From an uncultured Victivallales bacterium (lineage in GTDB: Bacteria > Verrucomicrobiota > Kiritimatiellia > UBA8416 > CAZWPN01): 64,000 nt of DNA. The notes under the pieces are model-generated. The model saw nothing but the letters and a program-made list of their open reading frames with translations. It was not told where the DNA came from and did no database searches. Of this stretch, positions 6,301-22,411 are shown piece by piece. The stretch covers positions 800-64,799 of the forward strand of contig CAZWPN010000003.1 of NCBI GenBank assembly GCA_964635275.1, written 5' to 3'. The translations under genes and the position numbers were made by a program. Position 1 is the first letter of the stretch. Each line of letters starts with the position of its first letter.

Positions 6301-8977
6301 GCCCCAGGTCAATGATCCAGTCCGCCGTACGGATCAGATCCAGATTGTGTTCGATGACAACCACCGAGTGCCCCTCGTTGAGGAGTTCGCGCAGTGCCCG
6401 GAGGAGCTTGCCGATGTCATCGGAATGAAGTCCCGTGGTGGGCTCGTCAAAGAGAAATAGAGTTCCCCGCCCGCCCTTCATGGATCGCGAACGGTGCTCC
6501 GAGAGGTGTCCGGCGAGTTTCAGGCGCTGGGCTTCGCCGCCGCTGAGGGTTGGCACGGGTTGGCCGAGGTGCAGATAGTCCAAACCCACGCTCATGAGGG
6601 GTCGAAGCGCCTGCAGTATGGCTTCATACGCGGCAAAGACGACGCAGGCTTCAGCGACCGTCAGGTCAAGAACATCCGCCACTGAGTGCCGGCCAAAAAG
6701 TTTTACATCGAGGATCTCATGACGGTAACGGCGTCCGGCGCAGTCGGGGCACCGCAGGTAGACATCGCTCAGGAACTGCATTTCCACATGCTGGAATCCG
6801 TTGCCTCCGCAGGCGGGACACCGTCCGTTTCCCGAGTTGAAGCTGAATGTGCCGGCGGTGTATCCGCGTCGCCGGGCCGTGGACTCGCCGGCGAAAAGGC
6901 GGCGGATGCGATCGAAGACGCCGACGTAACTGGCTGGGTTTGACCGTGTGGTTTTGCCGATTGGTGACTGGTCAACCAGGATGACCTCATCCATCTGATC
7001 CCAACCGCGAAGGCCGCTGTGGCGTCCGGGAGCCTCAGTCGGCAGCCGCATGGCCCTGCGGATGGCGGGGTAGCAGACATCCTGGATCAAGGTGGACTTG
7101 CCTGAGCCGCTGACGCCTGTGATGCAAACGAGGCGGTTAAGCGGGATGCGCACGTCGATGTTCTTCAGGTTATGTTCGGCGGCGCCGGTGATTTCCAGCC
7201 AGCGGGTTGGCGGGACCGGCATTTCCGGACGCCCCACCGTTCGGCGGCCGGACAGGTAGTCCGCGGTCAGCGAGGACCGGCATGCCAGGAGTTCCGGCAG
7301 TGGCCCGGAGAAAACGATCTGGCCGCCGCGCTCTCCTGGACCCGGGCCCAGGTCGAGAACCCTATCTGCCGCAGCAATTACGTCGGGATCGTGTTCCACG
7401 ATGACCAGCGTGTTGCCTGCATCGCGAAGCCGGTGAAGAATGCCGATCAGGCGGTGAATGTTGCGCGGGTGCAACCCGATGCTCGGCTCATCGAGAACGA
7501 AAAGGGTGTTAACCAGTGATGTTCCCAAGGCTGTGGTGAGGTTGATTCGCTGAACTTCGCCACCGCTCAGGGTGCGGGACTGACGGTCCAGTGTGAGGTA
7601 GTCCAGTCCCACTTCCACCAGGTACCCGAGGCGGGTCCGGATGCCATCGAGCAGCAGTTTCGATGCCTCGTCCAGCGGCGCCGGCAGAGCCAACTTACGG
7701 AAGAAGCGATGGCACTCCCCGATTGGAAGCAGCGCAATATCCTGGAGGGTAAGCCCGTTGCCTGGGCCGATGCGCCAGAGCAGGGCATCTGGTTTCAGAC
7801 GGCTCCCGCCGCACTCAGGGCAGACCTGATATGCGCGATATTTGGACAGCAGGACACGGATATGCATCCGGTAGCTCTTGGATTCAAGCCATCCGAAGAA
7901 GCGGGAGACTCCGTACCACACGCCATCCTCCCACCGTCCTTCTCCGTCAAGGACCCAGCGTTGCTGCGCCTGGGTAAGGTCCCGCCACGCCACGCCGGTC
8001 GGGATGCCCCTCTGGCGGGCGAAGGACATCATGTCGTCCTGGCATTCGCGGTAACTCTCGCTTTGCCACGGACGGATGGCGCCGTCCTTGAGAGTGCGCG
8101 TGTTGTCCGGGATGACGAGACCGTAGTCGATGCTGATGGTGCGTCCGAATCCGCGGCACTTCTCGCACGCCCCGATTGGTGAATTGAACGAGAACAGGCT
8201 TTGAGTGGGGTTGCGGTAGGCGATGTCGCAGTCGGGGCAATGCAGTCCAATCGAGAAACGCATGGGATCGGGGGCCGACTCGGCATGGAGGTTGACTCTG
8301 CCCTGACCATGCCGGAATGCCTTCTCGAGGTCATCCAGGATGCGTGACCGTCGGGACACGGAGAACGGCAGGCGATCCTGAATTACCTCCAGGCAGCCGG
8401 CCCGGCGGGAAAAGAGCCGCGAGTATCCTTGGCGCGAGAGCAGCGATTCCGCCTCGGCATCGCTGAAGTTGTGCGGCACGGAAACAGGGAATGTGATAGT
8501 CCACTCGGTGGGAAGGGATGACGCAGCCTGCAAGTCCATGATGCGCTGGAAGACGGTGAGTGGGGTGTCGCCCTGCACTGGCTTGGCACACTGCCGGCAG
8601 TGCAGGCGAGCGGCGCGGGCAAACAGCAATTTCAAATGGTCAGACAGTTCCGTCATTGTGCCGACCGTGGAGCGCGACGCCCTGACGGTGTTGGTCTGGT
8701 CAATGGCGATTGCCGGCGGGATGCCTTCGATGCGATCCACCCGCGGCTTGTCCATGCGGTCCAGGAACTGCCGGGCATAAGGCGAAAATGTTTCCACGTA
8801 CCGCCGCTGGCCCTCGGCGTACAGGATGTCAAAGGCAAGGGAGGACTTGCCGGAACCGCTGACGCCGGTCAGGACCGTGATCTTGCCCAGCGGGATGTCT
8901 ACATCCAGTCCCTTGAGGTTATTCTGGCTTGCGCCGACGATCCGAATGCATTCCTCCTGTGTCGGCTTGATACGCAT
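3389..8977 (-). CDS. uvrA: Excinuclease ABC subunit A, double-length form (four ABC cassettes, 1862 aa)
   Basis: Four Walker A motifs (GVSGSGKS x3, GISGSGKS), four LSGGE signatures, four hhDEP Walker B motifs, CxxC zinc fingers, UvrA-typical EGQRRYVETFSPYARQFL. Confidence 0.95.
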   Translation of the reverse strand: MRIKPTQEECIRIVGASQNNLKGLDVDIPLGKITVLTGVSGSGKSSLAFDILYAEGQRRYVETFSPYARQFLDRMDKPRVDRIEGIPPAIAIDQTNTVRASRSTVGTMTELSDHLKLLFARAARLHCRQCAKPVQGDTPLTVFQRIMDLQAASSLPTEWTITFPVSVPHNFSDAEAESLLSRQGYSRLFSRRAGCLEVIQDRLPFSVSRRSRILDDLEKAFRHGQGRVNLHAESAPDPMRFSIGLHCPDCDIAYRNPTQSLFSFNSPIGACEKCRGFGRTISIDYGLVIPDNTRTLKDGAIRPWQSESYRECQDDMMSFARQRGIPTGVAWRDLTQAQQRWVLDGEGRWEDGVWYGVSRFFGWLESKSYRMHIRVLLSKYRAYQVCPECGGSRLKPDALLWRIGPGNGLTLQDIALLPIGECHRFFRKLALPAPLDEASKLLLDGIRTRLGYLVEVGLDYLTLDRQSRTLSGGEVQRINLTTALGTSLVNTLFVLDEPSIGLHPRNIHRLIGILHRLRDAGNTLVIVEHDPDVIAAADRVLDLGPGPGERGGQIVFSGPLPELLACRSSLTADYLSGRRTVGRPEMPVPPTRWLEITGAAEHNLKNIDVRIPLNRLVCITGVSGSGKSTLIQDVCYPAIRRAMRLPTEAPGRHSGLRGWDQMDEVILVDQSPIGKTTRSNPASYVGVFDRIRRLFAGESTARRRGYTAGTFSFNSGNGRCPACGGNGFQHVEMQFLSDVYLRCPDCAGRRYRHEILDVKLFGRHSVADVLDLTVAEACVVFAAYEAILQALRPLMSVGLDYLHLGQPVPTLSGGEAQRLKLAGHLSEHRSRSMKGGRGTLFLFDEPTTGLHSDDIGKLLRALRELLNEGHSVVVIEHNLDLIRTADWIIDLGPEGGDAGGYLVCEGTPIDVAACAQSHTGTALRGMHTPPCSVGDGSNTAEKKARQTHPVIRVHNAREHNLKNINVTLPLNALSVITGISGSGKSTLAFDILFAEGQRRYLESINAYARQFVQPASRPDVDAIFGIPPTVAIEQRTSRGGRKSTVATTTEIYHFLRLLFVKLGIQHCPDCRIAIRPQTPDAILASLMKTWLNRPVALLAPLVVARKGLYTDLAAWALSKGYRHLRVDGAMIPTGKWPRLDRFREHNIELPVGRVRAAPEYEAELRVLLGSALQFGRGAIMAVPDGGAGSAGSRLSPAPAFYSIHRSCPGCHRNFPEMDPRLFSFNSRHGWCQKCFGTGLHLPGFDEEQTGEEIAWNAWWEGAETACPSCHGRRLREEALSVTFRTASIADITALSVDAARKYFDRLALEPGESEIGRDIVREIHSRLEFLSRVGLPYLTLDRAAPTLSGGEAQRIRLASQLGSNLRGVCYILDEPTIGLHPRDNRLLLDTLHELQTHGNTVILVEHDEETIRRADHIVDLGPGAGVDGGRVVCQGSLQTLLRHPESLTGRCLRNPMKHPLTGGRRPVQRTPEGHVTGPCLTVVNARMHNLKALRIPVPLNRLVCVTGVSGSGKSTLVRNVLHGSLSALHRQARSAGRRTRRACVQVVGCDALLGHEGVDRVMEVDQTPIGKTPRSCPATYVGFWDDIRRLFAETPEARLRGYGPARFSFNVPGGRCDACEGQGVRRIEMSFLPDVTVPCEVCEGRRFTPDTLGALFKERSIAEVLAMSVDEASVFFASQPPIHSSLRLLQEVGLGYMKLGQQSPTLSGGEAQRIKLVTELARCRSGRSAVPEHQSLQSPPSRERSQKSVSLSKAGRANRSGNGGTLYVLDEPTIGLHMADVEKLVRVLHRLVDAGNSVVVIEHNLDMMAEADWIIDMGPDGGESGGEVVAAGTPEDLTSAPPSRSWTAGILAKYLSSPRRRK

Positions 8978-9030
8978 AAGCCTCTATCATACCTCAGCCG
9001 GTAATTCGGGGAACACCACTAAGTTGGGGC

Positions 9031-9057
9031 GCGATACTTTTTGCGATACTTTTTGCG
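9031..9057. repeat. Tandem 12-bp direct repeat in the uvrA / hybrid-kinase divergent promoter
   Basis: GCGATACTTTTT x2 (9031-9054) plus GCG. Confidence 0.85.
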
Positions 9058-9104
9058 CTTGTGGCATTGCGACTGGCTGACTAAAATCAATCAGGTACGG
9101 ATAT

Positions 9105-11204
9105 ATGCATGAGCCAGAGACATCGGTGCGAGTGCTGCTGGTAGAAGACAACCCGGCGGATGCCTTGATAATTCTGGAGTTGCTCAGGGATGGCGGGAAG
9201 GGTGTCTTCAATGTCACCCATGCGGATCGGCTGGATGTCGGGATCAGGGAACTGAATCGGGTTCCCGATGTCGTTCTCCTTGACTTGAATCTCTCGGACA
9301 GCACTGGGATGGAAACGTTCCGGGCGTTTAGGCGGCACGCTGTTCACATGCCGATCATCCTACTGACCCATATGAACGACGAGGCGCTGGCTGCCCAGGC
9401 GCTGAGCGAGGGGGTTCAAGACTATCTGGTGAAGGGTATGTCGGATCCCCGGGTGCTGACCAGGGCGATTCGGTATGCGATCGAGCGCAAGCGCGCGGAG
9501 ATGGCGCTTCAGCAGTACCAGCAGCATCTGGAGGAGATGGTGCTGTGGCGGACGCGGGAGTTGCGACAGGCCAACCAGCATCTGCAGCAGGCGGAGGAAC
9601 AGCACCGTCAGACCGGCGAGGAACTGCGGCAAAGCGAGGGGCGGTTCCGGAACGTTTTCAATCACTCCCCTCTGGGGATCGTTGTTGCTTCCCCGGATTT
9701 CACCATCATCGATGCCAACCCGGCGATGTGTCGTCTTCTGGGCTACTCCCGCGAAGAGATGATTCGTATCGGCGTTGCGGGGATTTCACGGCCGGAAGAG
9801 ATGGTTCGCGATGCCCCCATGCTCCAACACCTCGCCAGGAACGAGATGGAGGTATACCGGACGGAGAAGAGCTATTGCAGGAAGGGCGGCCGTTGGGTGG
9901 ATGGACGAGTGACGGTCTCGGCCGTGCGCAGTGAACATGGGGCTCTTCTCTACTATCTGGCAATGGTGGAGGATGTTACCGATGCAAAACGTGCCGAGGC
10001 GGAGCATCGTCTGGTGGAGACGCGGCGGCATGGTGTGCAGCGAATGGAAAGTCTCTGGGGGCTTGCTGGAGGCGTCGCGCATGATTTCAACAACATACTG
10101 ACCGGGATACTTGGGTACACGGAACTTGCCCTGATGTCTGACCGACTTGACGACGAGGTTCGCGGGCATCTGACAGAGATCATGGCGCAGGGGAAGCGGG
10201 CGGCCGAGCTTGTGTCGCGCATCATGGCGTTCAGCCGGCAGGGGGCTCGGGAGTGTCGGCCGATCCGGTTGGATGCGGTGATTCGTGACGCCGTCCTTCT
10301 GCTGCATGGCGGATTCCCGCCAACAGTAGAAGTGCGCACGCTTCTGAATGAACAATGCGGCGCAGTGATGGCGGATGCAACGCAGATCCAGCAGGTGGTC
10401 ATGAATCTGGGGGCCAATGCACGCGACGCTATTGATGGACGTTCCGGGCTGGTTGAAATCCGCCTGGATGAAGTGACTTTGGGCCAGGAGCATGTGTCAG
10501 CGCTGCCAGACCTGCTTCCGGGGCGGCACGCGCTCATTACGGTTCGCGACTCCGGTTGTGGAATTGAGGCGGATCACTTGGATAGGATTTTCGAGCCGTA
10601 CTTCAGCACCAAGCGGTCGGGTATCGGGACAGGGTTGGGACTGGCGACAGTGCTGGGCGTTGTGCGCAGTCATCATGGCGCCATCGTGGCGGAGAGCGTG
10701 CCTGGCAAAGGAAGCACTTTCAAGGTCTACCTGCCGGTCACCAATGAACCCGTGGTGGGACAGGAATCCGTTTTGGAGCCTGGTACTGCCCCTGAGGGCA
10801 CGGAACGGGTCCTTTTCGTAGATGATCTGCTGTCCGCCGCGCATCTGGCCAAGATTGGCCTGGAACGCCTGGGTTACCGCGTGGACGTGTTTACCCACAG
10901 CCCGGCGGCCTTGCAGGCGTTTCTTTTGCGCCCGGAGTACTACGATGTGGTGATCACCGATCAACTGATGCCTGAACTTAGCGGTGTTGAACTGGCACGG
11001 TGTATTCTCGACGTCCGCGGCGATGTGCCGATCATCCTGTGCACAGGTTACAGCGACCGGTTGAATGGCGACCAAGCCAAGGCTTGCGGTATACGGGAAT
11101 TCCTTTTCAAGCCGGTGCTCACGCGCGACCTTGGCAGGGTCATCCGCAAGGTGCTGGCGAGGAACAAGGTGCTTGCAGGTCGGGCTGAAACTCGGCTACT
11201 CTAG
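9105..11204 (+). CDS. Cytoplasmic hybrid sensor histidine kinase (REC-PAS-HisKA-HATPase_c-REC)
   Basis: N-terminal REC (LLVEDN...DVVLLDL), PAS/PAC, H-box GGVAHDFNNIL, N-box QQVVMNLGANARDA, DSGCGI, FSTK, GTGLGL, C-terminal REC; no TM helix seen. Confidence 0.93.
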   Translation: MHEPETSVRVLLVEDNPADALIILELLRDGGKGVFNVTHADRLDVGIRELNRVPDVVLLDLNLSDSTGMETFRAFRRHAVHMPIILLTHMNDEALAAQALSEGVQDYLVKGMSDPRVLTRAIRYAIERKRAEMALQQYQQHLEEMVLWRTRELRQANQHLQQAEEQHRQTGEELRQSEGRFRNVFNHSPLGIVVASPDFTIIDANPAMCRLLGYSREEMIRIGVAGISRPEEMVRDAPMLQHLARNEMEVYRTEKSYCRKGGRWVDGRVTVSAVRSEHGALLYYLAMVEDVTDAKRAEAEHRLVETRRHGVQRMESLWGLAGGVAHDFNNILTGILGYTELALMSDRLDDEVRGHLTEIMAQGKRAAELVSRIMAFSRQGARECRPIRLDAVIRDAVLLLHGGFPPTVEVRTLLNEQCGAVMADATQIQQVVMNLGANARDAIDGRSGLVEIRLDEVTLGQEHVSALPDLLPGRHALITVRDSGCGIEADHLDRIFEPYFSTKRSGIGTGLGLATVLGVVRSHHGAIVAESVPGKGSTFKVYLPVTNEPVVGQESVLEPGTAPEGTERVLFVDDLLSAAHLAKIGLERLGYRVDVFTHSPAALQAFLLRPEYYDVVITDQLMPELSGVELARCILDVRGDVPIILCTGYSDRLNGDQAKACGIREFLFKPVLTRDLGRVIRKVLARNKVLAGRAETRLL

Positions 11205-12408: not shown

Positions 12409-13965
12409 ATGGCAAGACCTGTGGCGCTGATTATTCGAGACGGTTGGGGGCTTAACGAGAGAACGGATGGCAATGCTGTGGCGGCGGCGCGTACGCCCAA
12501 CATCGCGGCGTACAAGGCGAAGTACCCGTGGACCATTCTGGATTGTTCGGGGGAGCCAGTGGGGTTGCCCGACGGGTATCAGGGATCGAGTGAGGTAGGG
12601 CACCTGAACATGGGTGCCGGCCGGGTGGTGATCCAGGAACTCAAGCGCATTGACGACGGCCTTCGCACCGGCACCCTCTTCAAGCAACCAAAGTGGGGGG
12701 AGTTGATCGCCGCATGGCGTCAGTCCGTGGGACGACTCCACCTGATGGGTCTCCTGCAGGATGAAGGCGTTCATGCCCACCAGGAACACCTGTTCAAGAT
12801 CATGCGGCGCGCCCGGCTGGAGTTCCCCGCCGGCGAGATCGTTATCCATCCGTTCCTTGACGGGCGCGATACCCCTCCACGAAGCACGCTGGAGTATATC
12901 GCGAAACTGAACCTTGTGATGAAGGAAGTGGGCGGTTGCCGCATTGGAACGGTCATGGGCCGGTACTATGCGATGGACCGTTCGAAGAACTGGCGGCTGA
13001 CCGATCAGGCGTACGGTTGCCTGGTCTGCGCAGAGGGGCGGCGGGCGGAGACGGCGATAGCGGCGGTTGAGGAGTCATATGCGCAAGACAAGACGCCCGA
13101 TGGCACAGACATGGCCGACGAGTACATTCCGCCATACTGCATAGGCGGCTTTGCAGGAATCAAGGATGGCGACTGCGTGGTTCATACGAACTATCGGCAG
13201 GATCGCGCGTATCAACTCTCGCGTGCGTTCGTCGATTCCGCCTATCCCGGCACGCTCAAGGTCCGGCCGAAGGTCAATTACCTTGGCCTGACTCGCTACT
13301 ATGACGAGTTCAAGAACTACCTGATGGGGCCTATGGACGAGGGGGGCGGAATGGAGAACCTGCTCGGACAGGTCATCTCGCACGCCGGTTTGAGGCAGTT
13401 GCGCATTGCGGAAACGCAGAAGTTCCGTCATGTGACGAGTTTCTTCAACGGTAAGTCAACCACGCCGTATTCGGGCGAAGACCAGGTGGAGATTCCCAGC
13501 CGCTTCGACCCGGCCACGTTCGCCAGCCATCCAGAGATGGAAGCTTACGGTGTAACGGACGACCTTCTTATGCGGCTGAAGGACAATCCGTACGCCTTCA
13601 TCGGTGTGAACTATGCGAACGGCGATATGGTTGGCCACACCGGGAACTTCGAGTCGGCCCGTCGTGCGATCGAAGTGGTGGACGAGTGCGTTGGCCGGCT
13701 TGTGGCGCGATTGATGGAACTTGACGCGCATATCCTGATCACGGCGGATCATGGCAATGCCGAAGAGATGATTGACTACGAGACTGGCATGGTGAAGACC
13801 AGTCATACCCTGAATCCGGTGGAGTGCATTTACGTCGCGAGGGAGGCGCCCCGATGCAGGCTGGTTCCGCGCGGAAAACTGGCCGACATCGCACCGACTG
13901 TTCTCCACCTTCTGGGACTGCCGATTCCGAAGGAGATGACGGCGCAGGATTTGATTCTTGTGTGA
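12409..13965 (+). CDS. gpmI: 2,3-bisphosphoglycerate-independent phosphoglycerate mutase
   Basis: LIIRDGWG, GSSEVGHLNMGAGR, FLDGRDTPP, GRYYAMDR, NYANGDMVGHTG, TADHGNAE. Confidence 0.96.
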   Translation: MARPVALIIRDGWGLNERTDGNAVAAARTPNIAAYKAKYPWTILDCSGEPVGLPDGYQGSSEVGHLNMGAGRVVIQELKRIDDGLRTGTLFKQPKWGELIAAWRQSVGRLHLMGLLQDEGVHAHQEHLFKIMRRARLEFPAGEIVIHPFLDGRDTPPRSTLEYIAKLNLVMKEVGGCRIGTVMGRYYAMDRSKNWRLTDQAYGCLVCAEGRRAETAIAAVEESYAQDKTPDGTDMADEYIPPYCIGGFAGIKDGDCVVHTNYRQDRAYQLSRAFVDSAYPGTLKVRPKVNYLGLTRYYDEFKNYLMGPMDEGGGMENLLGQVISHAGLRQLRIAETQKFRHVTSFFNGKSTTPYSGEDQVEIPSRFDPATFASHPEMEAYGVTDDLLMRLKDNPYAFIGVNYANGDMVGHTGNFESARRAIEVVDECVGRLVARLMELDAHILITADHGNAEEMIDYETGMVKTSHTLNPVECIYVAREAPRCRLVPRGKLADIAPTVLHLLGLPIPKEMTAQDLILV

Positions 13966-14015
13966 AGGTGAGGCGGGGCAGGCGAAGCGCTGGGAAGGAA
14001 GGGCGGTTTGCAGCC

Positions 14016-15224
14016 ATGCGTTCGTGCGGTGACAGTCTGAAACTGGCGTCGCTGGCGCTGTGTGTGCTGGCGCTTCCCGCGTTGGCGCTGGACGTAGTCA
14101 GTGCAATCAGCCCCCGCAACGGAGAGCGACCACGCCGCCAGCGGACTGACTTGATTATTCTGCACACAACGGAGGCGCCGACGCGCAGCTCGATCAACAG
14201 CATCCGTGCGTACGGCGAAGCCCATTACGTCGTGGATCCCGGCGGGAATGTACACCGCATCATCGATAGGGATCGGGTCGCCTACCACGCCGGGCGAAGC
14301 ATGTGGAGTCGCCAGACGGATATCGATACGGTGTCTGTAGGCATCGAAGTGGTCGGCTACCACAACCGTGATATCACGTCTTTCCAGTACGCTGCGATTC
14401 GCGAACTGATAGAGTACCTGCAGGGCAAGTACAATGTTCCGGACGAACGGGTACTCACGCACTCCATGGTCGCCTACGGGGCGCCGAACCGCTGGCATAA
14501 ACAGTCGCACCGCGGGCGCAAGCGCTGCGGGATGATCTTCGCAAAGAAAGAGGTGCGCAAGAAGCTGGGCCTGGACGCCTCGCCGGTGTTCGATCCGGAT
14601 GTGCAGGCCGGGCGGCTGGTGAACGCCGACATTTACCTCGCCCGTGTGCTGTATGGGACGGCATCCGAGCAGGAGCAGGCTCTCAGCAATTTCGTCGGCC
14701 AATTCGCGAATGTGATCTCTTCGCGGCGTTCGGCCTGGGATATAGCCGGCGATGCCTACGACGACGATGAAACCATCTATGTTCTGCCTGGCGGCCAGAG
14801 CATTCCCGGGAATCGTGTCCGTGACTGGAAGTCTGTTCCGGCAGGGACCAAGGTCCTGGTCTCGGATTGCGCACATGCGAATGCCACGGAGGGCGTTCGT
14901 GAGTTGGGTGTGGACGGAATGACGCCGTCGGAAGTCGCCGGCGTCGAGTATAACAGCGAGGGCACGGTATACTTCCTTCCCAACGGGGATGTGCAGTTTG
15001 GCAACAGTATCCGTGACTGGGCGTTGCCCGCTGGTACGCGTGTGCTTGTCGGATACCTTCACGCAGGGACCGTCACGCCACTGCGCAACATCTACGCGAT
15101 TTGCGGCAAGCGTTGGAATGATGCCTCAACTATCTACCGGATGACCGATGGAACATTCAAGAACGGCGACGAGATAGATCAGCGCAAAGTGGCTACTGGA
15201 ACCATGATCTTCCGTCGTGGATAG
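14016..15224 (+). CDS. N-acetylmuramoyl-L-alanine amidase (Amidase_2/AmpD-like) with three C-terminal repeats
   Basis: Signal-like segment, IILHTTE, AHYVVD, VAYHAGRS, SVGIEVVG, VLTHSMV; start moved from 13824 to ATG 14016. Confidence 0.85.
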   Translation: MRSCGDSLKLASLALCVLALPALALDVVSAISPRNGERPRRQRTDLIILHTTEAPTRSSINSIRAYGEAHYVVDPGGNVHRIIDRDRVAYHAGRSMWSRQTDIDTVSVGIEVVGYHNRDITSFQYAAIRELIEYLQGKYNVPDERVLTHSMVAYGAPNRWHKQSHRGRKRCGMIFAKKEVRKKLGLDASPVFDPDVQAGRLVNADIYLARVLYGTASEQEQALSNFVGQFANVISSRRSAWDIAGDAYDDDETIYVLPGGQSIPGNRVRDWKSVPAGTKVLVSDCAHANATEGVRELGVDGMTPSEVAGVEYNSEGTVYFLPNGDVQFGNSIRDWALPAGTRVLVGYLHAGTVTPLRNIYAICGKRWNDASTIYRMTDGTFKNGDEIDQRKVATGTMIFRRG

Positions 15225-17763
15225 CTCCTCGCAGACAGGGAACAGCGGCGAAGGGTGGGTGACGGCAATGGTACCCATTGAATCGGGCCGGCAATCGCGC
15301 ATGCAATGGCGTCATTTTGTATTACACATCATGTCGCCTGTGGTTCTGACGCTTGCGCTTTGTCTCGGGCTGATCTTTGCGGTGGTGATGCCATCGATGA
15401 GGCAGAACATCGTCGAGCGCAAGAAGGAGATGATTCGCGAACTCACCCAGGCCGCCTGGAGCGAATTGGACGGTTTGTACGAGCAGGAACGCCGCGGGGT
15501 TTTGACCCGAGCGGCTGCACAGGAGGCGGCCGCAGCCCGCATTCAGCGACTCCGGTACGGAGATGATGCCAAAGACTACTTCTGGATCACCGATGAACAT
15601 CCGCGCATGGTCATGCATCCCTACCGGCCGGAATTGAACGGACGTGACTTGTCCAATTACGCCGACCAGGCAGGCAAAAAACTGTTCGTTGCCTTCGCCG
15701 AACTCGTGCGTTATCGGGGCGACGGCTACAGTGACTATCTCTGGCAGTGGAAGGACGACGAGCACCGCGTTGCCCCGAAACTATCTTATGTCAAAGGCTT
15801 CAAACCGTGGGGGTGGATCATCGGAACGGGTGTCTACCTTGAAGACGTTCAGGTCGAAATCGCTCAGGTTACTCGGCGTGTGTTGAAGGTTTCGGTGGGC
15901 ATTTCGCTGATCATCGGAGGGTTGTTGGTGTACATCGCCCACCAGGGGCTGAGCATGGAGCGCAAGAGGCAACAAGCCGAGAATGCCCTGCGTGCTTCAG
16001 AGGAAAAGTACCGACTACTGATCGAAGGCACCACCGAAGGCATCCTGATGATCCTGCAGGATCGGCCAGTCTACGCCAACAAGACGCTGCTCAACCTTCT
16101 GGGTTATACCGAGCAGGAGCTGCTCGATCTGCCGCTGCAAAGGATCATTGAGCCCGTGACCAGCAGGCAGGCGCGGCTTATCGGTAAAAACGGCCAGATG
16201 ACAGATGTGCAACTCGCCGCCGCGCCTGTGCAAATCGGTGATCAGACCGGGCAGGTGCTTTCCCTGAGAGATGTTACCGACCACAAGAAAACCGAGGAAA
16301 CGCTTCAGCGCCTGCTGTCCGAAATGCAGACCTCGTTGCCGCAGACCACTCAGCCGGTGAAGGCGCTGCCACTTCTGACTGTATCCTGCGGGCTGGATAC
16401 TCCCATTCGCCATGCGGCGGCGGCAATGGTGCGCGGCAATGCCAGTGCGATCCTTGTGGCTGCCCCGTCAGGCGATCCAGTGGGTATTGTAACCGACCGT
16501 GACCTGCGCGATCGCGTACTGGCCGTGGCTCGTGACACAGCGCAGCCCGTTTCCACCGTCATGAGCGCGCCGCTTATTCGGATACCGGAGCACGCCCTTT
16601 TGTTCGAGGCCGCCAGGGTGATGCAGGAGCGCGGCATTCAACACCTTGTGGTCACCGATGAATGCGGTGGTACCCTGGGCGTGCTGGCGGGCAGCGCCAT
16701 TCTTCACGCGCAGCGCCACGCGGTCGGCCTTCTGCTGGGCGAGGTCGATCATGCCCGTTCGCCCGATGATCTCCGGGACTGCAATCAAAAGCTGCCATAT
16801 CTCGTTCAATCGCTGCTTGATGCCGGGACCCGTGTGGAACATGTCACTCGCGTCCTGTCGAGTGTGGCGGACGCCATCACGGTTCGTCTGATCGGCATGG
16901 CCGAAGCCGAACTGGGGCCTCCTCCCGCTCCCTACGCTTTCATTACGCTTGGCAGCTCGGCGCGGGGCGAGCAAACCCTGGACACCGACCAGGACAACGC
17001 GATCCTCTATGCAAATATCCCTGCGGAGCGATCCGAAGCAGTCCAAGCGTACTTCTTGCGGCTCGGGGAAATGGTGTGTGGCTGGCTGGATCATGTTGGC
17101 TATCGGCGATGCAAAGGCGAGGTCATGGCATGCAACCCTAAATGGTGTAAGCCGATGGACCGGTGGAAGGAGTATGTCTACGCGTGCATTGCCGCTGCGG
17201 ACCCGCAGGATCTGCTGGACGTGAACACTTTTCTCGACTTCCGGTGTCTTTACGGCGAAGCCGGATATGTGACGGACCTGAGGCGGCACATGGATGAAGT
17301 ATTGGGGGATGATCGGCCGGTTTTCTTTTTTCACCTTGGCCAGAGCGCTTTGCAGTTCAAGCCGCCGCGGGGTATCTTAGGCAACATTCAGCTCGAGTCG
17401 GACGGCGAACGACCGTCGACACTCAACATTAAGAGCGCCATCATCCCTCTGGTGAACTTCGCCCGGGTGTATGCGCTGCGTCATCACATTGCAGAGACCA
17501 ACACGCTCGACCGACTGGCGCGTCTCCGGAATCAAGGGGTGCTTATGCCTTCCAGCCACGGCGAATTGGTGCAAGCCTATGCCGCATTGATGCAAATGCG
17601 GCTGGCTCATCAAGCCGGACAAATGGCCCGCCGCGTGCCGCCGGACAGCAGCATAGCCTTTTCGGAGCTGACCCATCTCGAACGGGCCGTCCTTCGAAAA
17701 GTGTTTGCCGACATCGCCGTCTTTCAGGCCAGGCTGGAAACCGATTTTTCCCGCACTGCATGA
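15217..17763 (+). CDS. Membrane protein: sCache_2 - PAS - CBS pair - DUF294/DUF294_C putative nucleotidyltransferase
   Basis: Two TM helices flank a Cache_2-type domain (YFWITD..RMVMHPYRPELNG.D...D..GKKLF...YLW..KLSYV..GWIIGTGVY); PAS-like segment; CBS (VGIVTDRDL, VSTVMSAP); NTase motif LGSSARGEQTLDTDQDN; DUF294_C-like NIKSAIIPLVNFARVYAL. Start could be 15217, 15268 or 15301. Confidence 0.88.
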   Translation: MDSSSQTGNSGEGWVTAMVPIESGRQSRMQWRHFVLHIMSPVVLTLALCLGLIFAVVMPSMRQNIVERKKEMIRELTQAAWSELDGLYEQERRGVLTRAAAQEAAAARIQRLRYGDDAKDYFWITDEHPRMVMHPYRPELNGRDLSNYADQAGKKLFVAFAELVRYRGDGYSDYLWQWKDDEHRVAPKLSYVKGFKPWGWIIGTGVYLEDVQVEIAQVTRRVLKVSVGISLIIGGLLVYIAHQGLSMERKRQQAENALRASEEKYRLLIEGTTEGILMILQDRPVYANKTLLNLLGYTEQELLDLPLQRIIEPVTSRQARLIGKNGQMTDVQLAAAPVQIGDQTGQVLSLRDVTDHKKTEETLQRLLSEMQTSLPQTTQPVKALPLLTVSCGLDTPIRHAAAAMVRGNASAILVAAPSGDPVGIVTDRDLRDRVLAVARDTAQPVSTVMSAPLIRIPEHALLFEAARVMQERGIQHLVVTDECGGTLGVLAGSAILHAQRHAVGLLLGEVDHARSPDDLRDCNQKLPYLVQSLLDAGTRVEHVTRVLSSVADAITVRLIGMAEAELGPPPAPYAFITLGSSARGEQTLDTDQDNAILYANIPAERSEAVQAYFLRLGEMVCGWLDHVGYRRCKGEVMACNPKWCKPMDRWKEYVYACIAAADPQDLLDVNTFLDFRCLYGEAGYVTDLRRHMDEVLGDDRPVFFFHLGQSALQFKPPRGILGNIQLESDGERPSTLNIKSAIIPLVNFARVYALRHHIAETNTLDRLARLRNQGVLMPSSHGELVQAYAALMQMRLAHQAGQMARRVPPDSSIAFSELTHLERAVLRKVFADIAVFQARLETDFSRTA

Positions 17764-17778
17764 GCCTTTGACGACGCT

Positions 17779-18585
17779 ATGGCGGATGCGGGCAATCAGG
17801 GGGGGGAGCTTGTGCGCGTGCTGATTGTCGGTGATGTGCATGGACAACACCGTGAACTGGCCGATGTACTGCGGCGAGTCCAGACGGATTTCGGCATTGG
17901 CGCTGCCATTCAGGTTGGCGACTTCGGATTCTACAAGGGGGAGATGATGCGGCTTCTCAGTGACAGTATCCGCTTTCCGGTGCCACTTCATGTTATCGAC
18001 GGTAATCATGAGGATCATGCATGGTTGCGGCGTGCGGTATGCAGCGGGGCATCACGTCGCTGGAAAGAAGAGGCCAATCTGGTCTATCAACCGCGCCCTT
18101 CGGTGGCTCGTCTTGGCGCATCCACTGTGGGGTTCCTGGGCGGAGCGCTGCATGTGGACCGCCCCCAGCAGCACAACCTGCTCAGTCTCTTCCCGAACTA
18201 CATCCTCCGTCGGCAGTGCCAGCAGGCCGTGGCCCTGTTCAACCGGGATCCTCCGGACCTTGTGGTAACTCACTCGTGTCCAGCCGCAATAGGAATCGGA
18301 ATACGTGGCTCGCCGGAGTTAGCGCATGGTGTGGCCGAGCACGTCATGCATGCCGGGTTCGACGCAGGGCCGCCCGAAGACTGCGGTGATGCGCAATTGG
18401 CGCTTCTCTGGCATGAATTGAAGCGCCGGCCAAGTGGTTGGGTGTTCGGCCATTTCCATCGCATTCATGATGCCAGAGTGAACGGTACCCGCTTTGTGTG
18501 CGTGGGAGACAATCTGGCCGCCATGCAGCACACGCTCGTGCTGTGGGATACGGAAGAAAAGAAGGTGCTCACCGTGCGGCGCTGA
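17779..18585 (+). CDS. Calcineurin-like metallophosphoesterase
   Basis: VGDVHG, QVGDFG, GNHED, THSCP and GHFH metal-binding motifs. Confidence 0.9.
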   Translation: MADAGNQGGELVRVLIVGDVHGQHRELADVLRRVQTDFGIGAAIQVGDFGFYKGEMMRLLSDSIRFPVPLHVIDGNHEDHAWLRRAVCSGASRRWKEEANLVYQPRPSVARLGASTVGFLGGALHVDRPQQHNLLSLFPNYILRRQCQQAVALFNRDPPDLVVTHSCPAAIGIGIRGSPELAHGVAEHVMHAGFDAGPPEDCGDAQLALLWHELKRRPSGWVFGHFHRIHDARVNGTRFVCVGDNLAAMQHTLVLWDTEEKKVLTVRR

Positions 18586-18653
18586 GGCGTGCCGGCTCCG
18601 TTGCTGCGGGAGCCCGCCCGCGCCACCGTTCCGTCGGACATGATCGGCTCAGC

Positions 18654-20561
18654 TCAGGATGCCACGCCTGCCTTGTTATGACCGCGCTGCGTCAGGAGCG
18701 ACACGACGACAAGCACTATGAACCCGAGCGGGATCGTGACGATGGCCGGCTGGCTGAACGGTACAATGGCCCTGGCCGGGTCTAGGCCGTACACATCCTT
18801 GTACGCCTGAGCGCTCAGCAGTATCCACGCAAGCGAGGCAAGCATTCCGACGATAATGGCGGCGGTGATGCCCTCCTTGGTGGTGCGTTTCCAGAACAGC
18901 AGCATCAGTAACGCCGGCAGATTTGCAGAAGCGGCGATGTTGAAGGCCCAGCCCACAAGGAAATTAACGTTCATCTTTGAGAACAGTATTCCCATGATGA
19001 TCGCGATGACGCCTACGCATAGAGCGGCAATTTTCGCCGCACGAACCTTGGCGAAATCATCCATGGGAATCTTGAGGAAATTGGTCATCAAGTCGTGCGC
19101 AACAGCGCCACTGGCGGCCATTATCAATCCGCTAACCGTGCCAAGCACCGTTGTGAACGCCACAGCGGAAATCACGGCAAACAGGAATTCGTTGATGCTG
19201 CGGGCAAGAAGCGGGGCGCTCATGTTGGAATCCGTCACGTCGAGAGCGCCACTGGTCATGGCCCCGAGGCCGAGGAACAACGTCAGGACGTAGAAGAATC
19301 CGATGACCGCAATGCCTACCACCGTGCTCTTGCGGGCGCTGACCTGATCCTTGACGGTGTAGTATCGGATCAGGATGTGGGGCAGTGACGCGGTGCCGCA
19401 GAACAATGCGAGCATCAGTGAGAGAAAGTCGAGTTTGTCGATCCACTTCTTGCTGCGCACTTTCTTGAAGGTCGGACTGGAGCCGGGCGCCATGAAGTCC
19501 TTTCCGGAGGTCGGCTTTTGGTAGTACACCGTCGTGGTGCTGCCATCGGCGTTCGCTAACTTGTCGCTGGACCAGAGGATGACTTCGCTATCCTGCATGG
19601 TCTGTATAAACCCGAGCGGCCCGAGTCCGCCGGTCTTCTCCACACCGCCAGGAAGTTTGGAGGCATAGCCGACAGGATGCAAATCAGCTTCCCCAGGGTT
19701 CTTGCCTCGCGGCTTACCGTTTATGCGCTTCTTTCCATCTTTTTGGATGTCGACGGTCTGGGTCTCGGAGAAAGTGCCGTCAGCCTCCTTGCGCCAGACC
19801 GTTACGACGCCGTCAGCAGCCTGAATGTGGACGTACGGCTTGCCGATCCATGCACCCTCCTCAGGCAACACGACACCTGACAGTGCGGTGACATTGCGCG
19901 CAGCGATGTGGCGGAGGTTGCCGGCGGAGTCAGTGGGCTTGGTAGTGATGCCGCGGTGGAGCAGCAGGACGGTGATGACGGCGCAAAGCACAACGAGCAG
20001 GCTGCCCTTGATAAACTGGACCCAGGTGGTGGAGACCATGCCGGCTGTAGTGACGATCAGAGTCACGATGCAGCCGACGACAATCACCCCGACGTAGTGG
20101 GGGAATCCGAGCAACGGTTGAACCAGCGCGCCGGCACCGACCATCTGGGGAATAAGGTAGAAACAACTGACGACTAGTGTGCTGACAGCAGCGGCCAGCT
20201 TGATGCCGCGGGAATTGAACTTGTTGTCGAGTGCGTCGGCAAAGGTATATCGTCCCAGACGTTTTAGCGGTTCTGCTATGATGAACAAAGCCACGATCCA
20301 GCCGGCCAGGTAACCGATGGAGTAGAGGAAGCCGTCGTACCCGTAGAAGGCGATCATGCCGCAGATGCCCAGAAATGACGCCGCCGAGAGATAGTCACCC
20401 GCAAATGCGACGCCGTTGACAGCCCAGTGGATGCCGCCGCCGGCGGCGAAATAGCCGGAGGCGGATTTTGCCCTGCGGCCCAGGTAGAAACTGATGGCGA
20501 TGACACTACCGGCGAAGAACATGAAGATCAGGATGGCCATTAGCGAGGTTGCGTGAATCAT
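18654..20561 (-). CDS. actP: Cation/acetate symporter ActP (sodium:solute symporter family) with a large extracytoplasmic insertion
   Basis: AFAGDYLSAASFLG, GYDGFLYSIGYLAGW, YLIPQMVGAG, TTWVQFIKG, GTASLPHIL, VAFTTVLGTVSGL, ASANLP. Confidence 0.9.
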   Translation of the reverse strand: MIHATSLMAILIFMFFAGSVIAISFYLGRRAKSASGYFAAGGGIHWAVNGVAFAGDYLSAASFLGICGMIAFYGYDGFLYSIGYLAGWIVALFIIAEPLKRLGRYTFADALDNKFNSRGIKLAAAVSTLVVSCFYLIPQMVGAGALVQPLLGFPHYVGVIVVGCIVTLIVTTAGMVSTTWVQFIKGSLLVVLCAVITVLLLHRGITTKPTDSAGNLRHIAARNVTALSGVVLPEEGAWIGKPYVHIQAADGVVTVWRKEADGTFSETQTVDIQKDGKKRINGKPRGKNPGEADLHPVGYASKLPGGVEKTGGLGPLGFIQTMQDSEVILWSSDKLANADGSTTTVYYQKPTSGKDFMAPGSSPTFKKVRSKKWIDKLDFLSLMLALFCGTASLPHILIRYYTVKDQVSARKSTVVGIAVIGFFYVLTLFLGLGAMTSGALDVTDSNMSAPLLARSINEFLFAVISAVAFTTVLGTVSGLIMAASGAVAHDLMTNFLKIPMDDFAKVRAAKIAALCVGVIAIIMGILFSKMNVNFLVGWAFNIAASANLPALLMLLFWKRTTKEGITAAIIVGMLASLAWILLSAQAYKDVYGLDPARAIVPFSQPAIVTIPLGFIVLVVVSLLTQRGHNKAGVAS

Positions 20562-20573
20562 GGAAAGAATCTC

Positions 20574-20846
20574 CTATTTGGACGATTTTCGGCAGAGTTT
20601 CATATAGAGGAGCGCCAGGACGAGTGCCGCCAAGATAAGGGCGAAACCGTACACCACGGCGAGGTTGGCTCCTCCAAGAAACGGTCGACTCATAGTCTCG
20701 GGAGAGAATGCGCTCAGAGCCATGAAGCCACCGTAGAAGATGACGTAAACGAGAAAGAGTATGACGCCCTTACGGCTATTGTAGGCCACAACAGCCGCGT
20801 CTTCCTGTTCCTTGGCCACAGGTGCCTTGAAGTCTAGTCCTGCCAT
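20574..20846 (-). CDS. DUF485 family (YjcH-like) small membrane protein
   Basis: 90 aa with two TM helices (YNSRKGVILFLVYVIFYGGFM; ANLAVVYG), immediately upstream of actP as is typical. Confidence 0.88.
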   Translation of the reverse strand: MAGLDFKAPVAKEQEDAAVVAYNSRKGVILFLVYVIFYGGFMALSAFSPETMSRPFLGGANLAVVYGFALILAALVLALLYMKLCRKSSK

Positions 20847-20868
20847 GATTGACTCCTTTTCGTCGTTA

Positions 20869-22116
20869 TCAGAATGTGTACTTTGTGCCCAACGCGATCA
20901 GGTTGCGAGCAAACTCACGTCCCGATTTGCCGGGAATTCCGCTCTTTGCCTCATCATGGGAGTAGGAGATGTCGGCGATGAAATGCTTGTTGAAGGTGTA
21001 GACCAAGCCAGCACTGGGTGTGTAGATCCAGTCATCCCTCATGACAGGAGCCTGCCATTCGCCCTGGTAGCACTTCATGCCGAGTGCGGCGTTCAGTTCG
21101 TCGGTGACCTGATGCTTCCAGTTGGCGCTGTAAACGACATCCTCATAGATGCTGTGACTTGCAAAGGCGGGCTGCTCGTAACGGGTGATCAGCAAGGTGA
21201 CGGAATCACGCTTGCCGAGCGCGAGCGTCGCCGAAGCATCTACGTACCACAGAAGTTCAGCTTTTTCGAACGCAGTCGGGATGCTGGCTTCGTCGAAACT
21301 CCGGAGGTCTGGACCGGCTTGCACATTCAACTTGAGCCAGTCGGTGGGTGTTCCTTCCACGCCGGCAAGGATGCGGTGGTAGTGGCTGCTGTAGGGGCTG
21401 GCTACACCAAGTCGGTCGCCTTGGTGTTGTTGACCGTAACGATAGCCGAGCACCATCCATGTCTTGCTAAGGACTTCGGCGCCGACATCGAGGCCGCCGT
21501 TGACATCGGAACGGTCAATGTAGTTCTCGTAACTTTTGTTGCTGCTCTGGAGGGTTCTGAAATCATGAGCGTAGGACGTGATGACGGGCCGGATGAGCCA
21601 GGATCCGGCGGTCTTGGTGATCTTCGCGCTGTTGCGAAAGATGGTCGCGTCGCGTCGGTCTCGCAGCGGAACGCCGCCAATGGCGGGAATGTCGCCGCCC
21701 TGCTCGGTAAGGAATGTCACGCCTTGACCGTCCCCGTCAATGCCGACGATCGAATTGTTCACCTCCCACGCGGTCTGGCCAACCTTGCCGCCGATGTTGA
21801 AAGCTCCGCGATGGGCGATGTTGTTCTCAGATGAGGCGGAGTGGTAGTAGCTGAATTCGGGAGCGTATGAGAGGGTGGCTTTAAGGGTCGCGGCCTTCTT
21901 ATATTCGAGCGCGAGAGAAGGCGTGAAGGAAGAGACCATCGAACTCTTATCGGCGAGGTCGCTCTTCCCCTGAAGAAGGACGTTATCGTCGTATGTCTCT
22001 TTCACCGAAAGGCTGGAGGAGAGAACCCATGGAGAATCCGCCGCAGCATAGTGTGAAATGGAGCTCACGAATGTAAATACAGCCAACCCTACAACGGACT
22101 TAACGCGCAATGTCAT
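20869..22116 (-). CDS. Outer-membrane beta-barrel protein (BBP2-like)
   Basis: Signal peptide, ETYDDNV motif, alternating beta-strand pattern, C-terminal ...GTKYTF; start moved to ATG 22116. Confidence 0.8.
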   Translation of the reverse strand: MTLRVKSVVGLAVFTFVSSISHYAAADSPWVLSSSLSVKETYDDNVLLQGKSDLADKSSMVSSFTPSLALEYKKAATLKATLSYAPEFSYYHSASSENNIAHRGAFNIGGKVGQTAWEVNNSIVGIDGDGQGVTFLTEQGGDIPAIGGVPLRDRRDATIFRNSAKITKTAGSWLIRPVITSYAHDFRTLQSSNKSYENYIDRSDVNGGLDVGAEVLSKTWMVLGYRYGQQHQGDRLGVASPYSSHYHRILAGVEGTPTDWLKLNVQAGPDLRSFDEASIPTAFEKAELLWYVDASATLALGKRDSVTLLITRYEQPAFASHSIYEDVVYSANWKHQVTDELNAALGMKCYQGEWQAPVMRDDWIYTPSAGLVYTFNKHFIADISYSHDEAKSGIPGKSGREFARNLIALGTKYTF

Positions 22117-22161
22117 ACTCACCACACCTTCTGTTAATGCCGACCAGCAGATAAAACCGCC

Positions 22162-22200
22162 CTTCCGGCGGCAAGCTTCCGGCGCCAAGCGTTCCGGAAG
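22162..22200. repeat. Tandem 14-bp quasi-palindromic repeat upstream of the barrel-DUF485-actP operon
   Basis: CTTCCGGCGGCAAG (22162-22175), CTTCCGGCGCCAAG (22176-22189), then degenerate CGTTCCGGAAG. Confidence 0.75.
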
Positions 22201-22411
22201 TTCGCCCACAAACTATCGCCGTTGCGGACACGTCTGTCAATTGCTAACAAGTCAACCTGACTGATCCTGTCTTCATCCTTGCTATGCAATTCGCGCCATG
22301 GCAATCTCTCGCTTCAAGTATCTACATGGTCGTCCATGCGCGCAGTGCGTCGGGCGTCGACGATGCGGGTACGAGGAAGGCGAACACATTTCCACAACCG
22401 GGGAGGCAGAG

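Follow-up and report, generated by a model that had tools for sequence, protein, structure and literature searches.

Annotation of a 64,000-nucleotide (nt) stretch of DNA from an uncultured Victivallales bacterium (GenBank assembly GCA_964635275.1, contig CAZWPN010000003.1), referred to below as the window, revealed a module of five genes. A receptor nucleotidyltransferase (NTase) gene and a metallophosphoesterase (MPE) gene lie on the plus strand and face an operon encoding a monocarboxylate symporter, a small membrane subunit and an outer-membrane protein on the minus strand. The five genes, their domains and their motifs, outlined in a preliminary description of this locus, were confirmed. 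Their positions in the window are given below (aa, amino acids; TM, transmembrane segment; AF2, AlphaFold2; ORF, open reading frame).

15217–17763, plus strand: receptor nucleotidyltransferase gene, recognized by its Pfam architecture (848 aa in the longest ORF; likely start ATG 15268)
15310–15402, plus strand: TM1, aa 32–62 (hydropathy scan; long helix 31–92 in the AF2 model)
15415–15876, plus strand: periplasmic sCache_2 domain, aa 67–220 (Pfam, 136 bits)
15877–15951, plus strand: TM2, aa 221–245, running on into a long signalling helix (hydropathy; AF2 helix 208–265)
16003–16278, plus strand: cytoplasmic PAS domain, approximately aa 263–354 (weak Pfam match; TIGR00229, 48 bits)
16378–16710, plus strand: CBS pair (Pfam CBS, 56 bits, two stretches)
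16789–17208, plus strand: DUF294 Pol-beta-type NTase core, aa 525–664 (Pfam, 150.8 bits, cutoff 21)
17320–17748, plus strand: DUF294_C helical domain, aa 702–844 (Pfam, 132.6 bits, cutoff 22.5)
17779–18585, plus strand: cytoplasmic MPE (Pfam Metallophos, 43.5 bits; likely start GTG 17812, 257 aa)
18654–20561, minus strand: ActP/MctC-like SSF monocarboxylate symporter (Pfam SSF, 240 bits)
19512–19955, minus strand: extra-membrane insert of the ActP-like symporter, about 148 aa (aa 203–350), after TM6, predicted to be periplasmic (split profile match)
20574–20846, minus strand: DUF485 (YjcH-like) small membrane subunit (Pfam, 45 bits; two TM segments)
20869–22116, minus strand: beta-barrel protein of the outer membrane, carrying a signal peptide; the operon begins with this gene (BBP2_2, 27.6 bits)

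Pfam matches and hydropathy agree on the two-TM fusion of sCache_2, PAS, CBS pair and DUF294/DUF294_C domains that the preliminary description had claimed. The Cache domain was assigned to the periplasm, and all parts following TM2 to the cytoplasm, because hydrophobic segments (located by hydropathy scan) flank the Cache domain. The PAS domain was matched by PAS_8 (23.2 bits, cutoff 21.8) and, under its cutoff, by PAS_9 (25.9 bits), and its modelled fold is PAS-like. The CBS pair is located directly upstream of the NTase and resembles nucleotide-binding CBS pairs in Foldseek searches, e.g. 2RIF with AMP, and IMPDH. No match to a cyclic nucleoside monophosphate (cNMP)-binding domain was found in the receptor by Pfam; the N-terminus is composed of TM, sCache_2, TM and PAS in its place. 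Structural comparisons were based on AF2 models of the receptor and the MPE (pLDDT 76.8 and 75.9, respectively), which were run against the PDB with Foldseek (top 50 matches for the receptor); TM-scores normalised to the target are given as TMt.

The receptor gene probably starts at ATG 15268 rather than at GTG 15217. The GTG codon overlaps the stop codon of a preceding amidase ORF (13824–15224) by 8 nt, and the longest amidase ORF itself overlaps an iPGM gene by approximately 140 nt; both overlaps are probably longest-ORF artefacts, with the real starts located further downstream. The most likely start of the MPE gene is GTG 17812, which is preceded by a Shine-Dalgarno sequence (GGGGGGAG) and agrees with a database gene call of 257 aa. 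As described earlier, the MPE gene follows the receptor gene, but the reported distance of 15 bp applies to the longest ORF only, and the gap measured from GTG 17812 is 48 bp. The hydropathy scan of the MPE showed neither a TM segment nor a signal peptide. The convergence of both genes on a barrel-DUF485-actP operon also held, the SSF/ActP, DUF485 and barrel genes all being recovered on the minus strand by Pfam.

Sensor domain and nucleotidyltransferase of the receptor

Related loci were collected by a genome scan with one genome per species, which listed 80 loci with full-length Cache-to-DUF294_C matches (the true total is higher); all counts out of 80 refer to these Cache-DUF294 loci. Their taxonomic labels include Verrucomicrobiota/Kiritimatiellia, Acidobacteriota, Chloroflexota, Bacteroidota, Spirochaetota, Desulfobacterota, Riflebacteria, Armatimonadota, Gemmatimonadota and Elusimicrobia. 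A protein search with the receptor listed at least 120 homologues with 58–77% identity and the same domain set, most of them from metagenome-assembled genomes labelled as Verrucomicrobiota or other Planctomycetes-Verrucomicrobia-Chlamydiae groups. Alignments of close homologues of the receptor and of homologues of the MPE comprised 22 sequences each.

The solved structures nearest to the Cache domain are 4K08 (Adeh_3718, with acetate in the crystal; E = 7e-34) and 5G4Y (PscD, with propionate; E = 1.5e-28), and the predicted structure of the domain aligns with both in Foldseek (TMt of 0.93 and 0.91, respectively). The ligand contacts of PscD are Tyr90, Trp92, His103, Phe126, Tyr143, Trp145 and Lys156, and the same seven residues are identical in PscD, McpP and Adeh_3718, which are binders of acetate, propionate, pyruvate and glycolate (Brewster et al., PMC5062169). 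All seven are present in the receptor according to HMMER alignment (Y121, W123, H134, F157, Y174, W176 and K188), and the MHP, YLW and KLSY motifs singled out in the preliminary description correspond to true contact positions (H134, Y174/W176 and K188). The seven pocket residues are invariant in all 22 close homologues and in each of the 75 of 80 loci with a complete, alignable Cache domain. The nearest structures and the fully retained contacts bear out the acetate/propionate-type assignment of this domain, and a C2/C3 monocarboxylate is strongly predicted from the sequence to be its ligand.

Only an eighth pocket-lining position varies. Met129 of PscD, which limits C3 ligands, corresponds to Phe160 in the receptor (codon at nt 15694–15696), and F, A, M, S, I, V, G or Y is found there in relatives. 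Phenylalanine is present at most loci, while many Bacteroidota loci (L015, L019, L020, L023, L032, L040, L041 and L075 among those noted; the prefix L denotes numbered loci of the set) have alanine, serine or glycine. Several of these Bacteroidota loci with a small residue carry a DUF4212-SSF transporter rather than ActP. Published fitness data connect the DUF4212-SSF transporter with lactate and alanine, and ligand size may track transporter type.

The sensor domain is 38–40% identical to those of the sCache_2 chemoreceptors PscD (P. syringae), McpP (P. putida) and Adeh_3718, and the two-TM topology is common to both kinds of protein. The output of these chemoreceptors is a methyl-accepting chemotaxis protein signalling domain, whereas that of the receptor described here is an NTase. 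Among NCBIfam profiles the best match to the Cache region, under its cutoff, was the MctS sensor domain. The CrbS/CrbR (MxtR/ErdR) and MctS/MctR systems would share the job of the module, i.e. fitting actP/mctP-type transport to carboxylate supply. They are, however, histidine kinase/response regulator pairs acting on transcription, whereas kinase, receiver and DNA-binding domains are all absent from the module.

The NTase signature (LGSSARGEQTLDTDQDN) is intact in the receptor, in agreement with the GS..R.E....DxD motif reported previously. Residues G579, S580, R583, E585, D591, D593 and N594 are invariant in the 22 close homologues and in all 80 loci, and D674 and R676 are nearly invariant in the latter set; such conservation is expected of an active Pol-beta-type NTase. 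The only NTases within the top 50 Foldseek matches were E. coli GlnE (1V4A, 3K7D) and Legionella DrrA (6YX5), with E values of approximately 2e-7. GlnE and DrrA put AMP on protein tyrosines or take it off. Together with GlnD, they share with the receptor a Pol-beta NTase core and a helical KNTase_C-type domain (DrrA is also named SidM). GlnE and GlnD are soluble and sense glutamine or PII, and a further NTase domain or an HD domain reverses their reaction. Legionella DrrA is a GlnE-like AMPylator, for which SidD, encoded by an adjacent gene, is the metal-dependent de-AMPylase. The DrrA/SidD pair resembles the receptor and the MPE in having adjacent genes and a metal-dependent hydrolase, which in the case of the MPE is a putative eraser. 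The DUF294_C domain, also termed a 'substrate-binding' domain, belongs to a KNTase_C/HEPN-like clan and is grouped with the C-terminal domains of GlnD and GlnE (PMC3710099); this grouping agrees with the Foldseek result.

Phosphoesterase partners and linkage to the transporter genes

All metal-binding residues of the MPE are present (D19, H21, D48, N76, H77, H165, H225 and H227). The motifs DxH, GD, GNH, H and GHxH that contain them are conserved at a level of at least 95% in 37 partner MPEs and are invariant in the 22 homologues of the MPE. A sequence search of the PDB returned nothing better than E = 0.02, so the AF2 model and Foldseek were used for this protein. The nearest fold is that of the lariat-debranching phosphodiesterase Dbr1 (E = 2e-10), followed by LpxH, Rv0805 and GpdQ.

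Partners of the receptor genes in the related loci were tallied with hidden Markov models on six-frame translations, supplemented with Pfam checks. A phosphoesterase partner was found in 69 of the 80 loci (MPE in 48, fused PHP in 20 and RNase_T in 1), in the following arrangements.

26/80 loci: MPE immediately downstream, same strand (including distant ones of 23–30% identity, and divergent ones in L014, L054 and L060)
21/80 loci: MPE immediately upstream, same strand
1/80 loci (L066): MPE three genes downstream, same operon
20/80 loci: PHP domain fused at the N-terminus before TM1, on the cytoplasmic side like the NTase
1/80 loci (L056): RNase_T exonuclease upstream
9/80 loci (L020, L021, L023, L032, L043, L045, L053, L055 and L063): nothing recognisable as a phosphoesterase within the flanks
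2/80 loci: contig ends too early for the partner to be judged

The MPEs fall into at least two subfamilies: the upstream-type and downstream-type proteins form the two main clusters, and no significant BLASTP similarity was detected between them. The fused PHP domain belongs to the TrpH/YciV type, with the pAp phosphatase Cv1693 (2YB1, E = 1e-21) and RNase AM (7UG9) as the nearest solved structures. The strongest new result of this analysis, read from sequence and gene order, is that the phosphoesterase role appears to be needed and that at least four or five different enzymes have been recruited to fill it. The partner is conserved in function, not in fold. Since non-homologous enzymes were repeatedly recruited or fused, the product of the NTase would hold a hydrolysable phosphodiester that needs turnover.

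Canonical COG2905 proteins, composed of a cNMP-binding domain, a CBS pair, DUF294 and DUF294_C and accompanied by an exonuclease, are exemplified by P. aeruginosa PA3233/PA3232 (beside actP), P. fluorescens Pflu5625 and S. amazonensis Sama_1525. They share the CBS-DUF294-DUF294_C catalytic module with the receptor (approximately 26–36% identity), and their gene order (small subunit, SSF/ActP, DUF294, phosphoesterase) is that of loci L037, L042, L061 and L062. Canonical and Cache-type genes are both associated with acetate/monocarboxylate uptake, and both are uncharacterised. The canonical proteins are soluble, with a cytoplasmic cNMP-binding sensor, whereas the Cache-type proteins carry TM-sCache_2-TM-PAS in its place, which makes an extracellular ligand the input. 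The hydrolase differs as well: a DEDDh exonuclease in the canonical type, and an MPE or, in other clades, a fused PHP domain in the Cache type. A 3′-5′ exonuclease gene either adjoined the DUF294 gene or followed it at a distance of two to three genes within one operon in all five annotated records of soluble cNMP/CBS/DUF294 proteins used for comparison (Vibrio, Paracoccus, Hymenobacter, P. aeruginosa and Rhizobium), while no exonuclease or PHP homologue was found anywhere in the 64-kb window. The earlier suggestion that the phosphoesterase replaces the exonuclease is thus strongly supported, the exonuclease slot of the canonical genes being occupied by an MPE or a fused PHP domain in the Cache type.

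In locus L056, labelled Myxococcales, an ORF with an RNase_T domain (8318–9976, plus strand) lies directly upstream of the receptor gene, with no MPE or PHP; it may be a transitional form linking the canonical arrangement to the Cache type. Among the loci with no recognisable partner, the downstream genes include those for YceI-like and SnoaL-like proteins, and one of these loci (L045) is from a cultured isolate, Carboxylicivirga. A conserved TPR protein of approximately 257 aa is encoded in the Bacteroidota-type loci L015, L019, L020, L023, L032, L040, L041, L059 and L075, where its gene separates the SSF gene from those for the porin, MPE and receptor. It is located directly upstream of the receptor gene in L020, L023 and L032, which have no phosphoesterase.

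An SSF gene was present within a few genes of the receptor in 57–61 of the 80 loci, either of the ActP type with DUF485 or of a second type with DUF4212, and it was located upstream of the receptor gene, downstream of it or in convergent orientation. In two relatives, for which independent gene calls were taken from proteins P0053 and P0004 (an exact-protein look-up with the MPE of the window, P0121, returned no record, and these were used in its place), all five genes recur: receptor, MPE and then, convergently, SSF, DUF485 and an outer-membrane protein of 430–450 aa. The flanking genes are entirely different in these genomes. The association with ActP/SSF and with a phosphoesterase, whose absence from other genomes would have told against the earlier interpretation, is kept across phyla. 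Neither the window nor any of the 80 loci contained a detectable acetyl-CoA synthetase gene (acs; E < 1e-20), which places the transporter, and not acs, at the centre of the module.

Proposed mechanism and competing explanations

We propose, with a probability of about 50%, that the module comprises a receptor nucleotidyltransferase gated by C2/C3 carboxylates and a resetting phosphodiesterase, which together control monocarboxylate uptake; its target and chemistry are conjectural. The interpretation offered in the preliminary description is supported to this extent: each part that could be tested in silico (Cache type, intact NTase, linkage and partner swap) held. A C2/C3 monocarboxylate, most likely acetate, would enter the periplasm via the barrel protein and bind the Cache domain. 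Combined with input from a nucleotide bound by the CBS pair, this signal would switch the NTase, which would move a nucleoside monophosphate (NMP) from a nucleoside triphosphate to a hydroxyl of the target, most likely on a protein. The leading candidate target is the transporter complex, made up of ActP/SSF and the small subunit, or else a regulator of that complex; ActP itself is a guess from the gene neighbourhood. The MPE would then cleave the resulting phosphodiester, free 5′-NMP and reset the system. In other lineages this step would be performed by an MPE of a different subfamily, a fused PHP domain of the RNase AM/pAp-phosphatase type or an RNase T-type exonuclease. The outcome would be ligand-dependent control of monocarboxylate uptake with no involvement of a histidine kinase, a cyclase or a DNA-binding domain.

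A protein target is favoured because of the GlnE/DrrA-like fold, the DrrA/SidD precedent and the nature of the hydrolases, which would free a terminal 5′-NMP. DEDDh, PHP and MPE hydrolases presumably all cut the O–P bond with release of a terminal 5′-NMP, as the removal of NMP from a protein requires. A more far-reaching proposal is only tentative: the Cache-type proteins may constitute a new class of one-component transmembrane 'receptor nucleotidyltransferases', in which an extracellular C2/C3 carboxylate switches a GlnE-like enzyme whose nucleotidylation target is a protein in the cytoplasm (probably the SSF complex), with interchangeable MPE, PHP and DEDDh erasers.

Published data on canonical relatives connect them with the uptake of monocarboxylates. 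Acetate and propionate co-induce the genes PA3232–PA3235, and Pflu5625 is a member of the CrbS/R acetate regulon (PMC5715377). In Shewanella amazonensis and Pseudomonas stutzeri, the DUF4212/SSF transporter is cofit with the COG2905/RNase T gene located near it (10.1101/072470). The literature search found no paper on the Cache-type architecture, the partner swap or a biochemical activity, and text matches to DUF294 were mostly papers on DUF2946. Databases already list this gene family under automatically assigned names, which makes the Cache type a variant of a known, unstudied family rather than a new kind.

Several observations weigh against the proposed mechanism. The likeness of the NTase to GlnE and DrrA is moderate (TMt of 0.43–0.65, approximately 14% identity in Foldseek), and no Pfam GlnE or GlnD_UR_UTase match was found in the receptor (E <= 0.01). 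The claim of a GlnD/GlnE-like NTase therefore stands with respect to the motif and the fold, but as a resemblance and not as membership of these families. Price et al. interpreted the cofitness in terms of expression and not of activity (10.1101/072470), and deletion of Pflu5625 gave no acetate growth phenotype (PMC5715377). Moreover, the partner families are best known as nucleic-acid/nucleotide hydrolases (RNase T, RNase AM/pAp phosphatase and Dbr1-like), with which an oligonucleotide or nucleotide product fits at least as naturally as a protein adduct. Three further points, namely that the receptor and MPE genes are convergent and not co-transcribed with the transporter operon, that nine loci are devoid of a recognisable phosphoesterase, and that the literature records no activity, target or ligand for any DUF294/COG2905 protein, also speak for a non-catalytic module, in which the NTase domain would be an allosteric nucleotide sensor acting through protein contact, or for a coincidental adjacency of MPE and ActP. 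We regard this explanation as very improbable. The NTase residues are invariant across phyla, the metal ligands of the MPE are likewise conserved, and non-homologous phosphoesterases were recruited repeatedly and in one type fused. The module is retained while its flanks change, and coincidence is effectively excluded.

The character of the hydrolases also fits a second-messenger pair, in which the NTase, on sensing a carboxylate, would make a diffusible signal of nucleotide nature (an oligonucleotide, cyclic or linear, or a nucleotide conjugate) that is read by a receptor, possibly the transporter, and degraded by the MPE, PHP or exonuclease, in a manner likened to GGDEF/EAL with Orn for c-di-GMP or to CyaA/CpdA for cAMP. 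The affinity of the PHP domain to Cv1693 and RNase AM, the RNase_T of L056 and of canonical loci, and the likeness of the MPE fold to the phosphodiesterases Dbr1, Rv0805 and GpdQ are all consistent with such a pair, as is the fusion of synthase and hydrolase in one sensor, which has parallels in bifunctional GGDEF-EAL proteins and RelA/SpoT. On the other hand, the fold and clan of DUF294 with DUF294_C are of the GlnE/DrrA type, and no cGAS/OAS/CD-NTase or poly(A) polymerase appeared among the top 50 Foldseek matches. Apart from the transporter genes, no conserved candidate effector domain was found in the 80 neighbourhoods, nor was there any PADLOC/CBASS-like match. We consider a second-messenger pair, the main rival of the proposed mechanism, unlikely, though it accounts for the partner families well.

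The pairing of an NTase with a gene of a nuclease family is common in defence systems, and an anti-phage module with an NTase and a nuclease or phosphoesterase, as in CBASS-like systems, was also considered. The neighbouring genes encode transporters, not defence or mobile functions, and the sensor is a Cache domain of the nutrient type. This reading, to which we attach almost no probability, was rejected, as none of the receptor, the MPE and the PHP domain gave a PADLOC match.

The DUF294/COG2905 family is widespread, and its expression and cofitness have repeatedly been tied to acetate/monocarboxylate uptake. The Cache-type variant offers a good entry point to its function, because the input is predictable from the seven conserved contacts and the output enzyme is intact. 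If the proposed carboxylate-gated nucleotidylation is correct, it would define transmembrane signalling by a route other than phosphotransfer or a classical second messenger, and would show how many uncultured lineages (relatives carry labels of Verrucomicrobiota, Bacteroidota, Chloroflexota, Spirochaetota and Desulfobacterota) tune the uptake of short-chain fatty acids. It would also provide a first function for a large orphan family, and reversible nucleotidylation of proteins would join the known outputs of transmembrane signalling in bacteria.

Transporter operon, leader region and surrounding genes

The SSF symporter scored 416 bits against the NCBIfam profile of MctC (cutoff 670) and 393 bits against that of ActP (cutoff 750); both scores fall under the cutoffs because the insert splits the profile match. 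The insert was found in 36 of 36 DUF485-type ActPs encoded next to Cache-DUF294 genes in several phyla, with 131–148 aligned residues and approximately 25–30% identity across phyla. It has no match in Pfam or the PDB, is lacking from the canonical ActP and MctC profiles, and is likewise absent from the DUF4212-type SSFs of related loci.

The barrel protein is TIGR03016-like, under the cutoff, and contains an N-terminal hydrophobic segment. The first gene of the transporter operon always encodes an outer-membrane-type protein of approximately 420–450 aa (20869–22116 in the window, 15690–17039 in L085, 15916–17211 in L084, approximately 16100–17400 in L008 and 7686–8945 in L057). No BLASTP homology was detected between the protein in the window and the proteins in the same slot of relatives. 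The protein is BBP2_2-like in the window and weakly DcaP-like in L008, and has no Pfam match elsewhere; different barrel families seem to have taken the porin position.

A pattern scan pointed to a leader region immediately upstream of the barrel-DUF485-actP operon.

22117–22240, minus strand: promoter-like site and leader with a GC hairpin, a T-run and three CCGGAA repeats (weak evidence)

The promoter-like site is TTGACA-17-GATAGT. The fold energy of the leader is -36.2 kcal/mol (z = -1.9), and terminator-like sites are no commoner than in shuffled sequence. The leader sequence is not conserved across the 80 loci, and no Rfam family was matched at gathering thresholds anywhere in the window. 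The region looks like an attenuator, with weak statistical support.

This leader bears on a further explanation, an RNA 3′-end switch, in which the NTase would tail an RNA (e.g. the transporter mRNA or its leader) and an exonuclease-type partner would trim it, resulting in post-transcriptional control. Polymerases obtain 3′-5′ exonuclease activity from three folds, DEDDh, PHP and MPE. The hairpin, T-run and repeats of the leader would suit such a switch, and Price et al. speculated that symporter expression depends on the COG2905/RNase T gene (10.1101/072470). Against it stand the weak, unconserved leader signal, the lack of an RNA-binding domain, a fold that resembles protein AMPylators more closely than poly(A) or CCA enzymes, and the nature of Dbr1, the nearest fold to the MPE, which is a 2′-5′ phosphodiesterase and not a 3′-5′ exonuclease. 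We find an RNA switch improbable, and nucleotidylation of a protein remains the preferred reading.

Two other genes of the window were noted. A hybrid sensor kinase of the receiver-PAS-HisKA-HATPase_c-receiver type is encoded at 9105–11204 (plus strand), approximately 4 kb upstream of the module, and is not conserved near the module in relatives. At 3389–8977 (minus strand), an ORF of 1862 aa with UvrA-type domains (ABC_tran, UvrA_inter and UvrA_DNA-bind) has about twice the length of a normal UvrA and looks like a tandem-fused UvrA-like protein.

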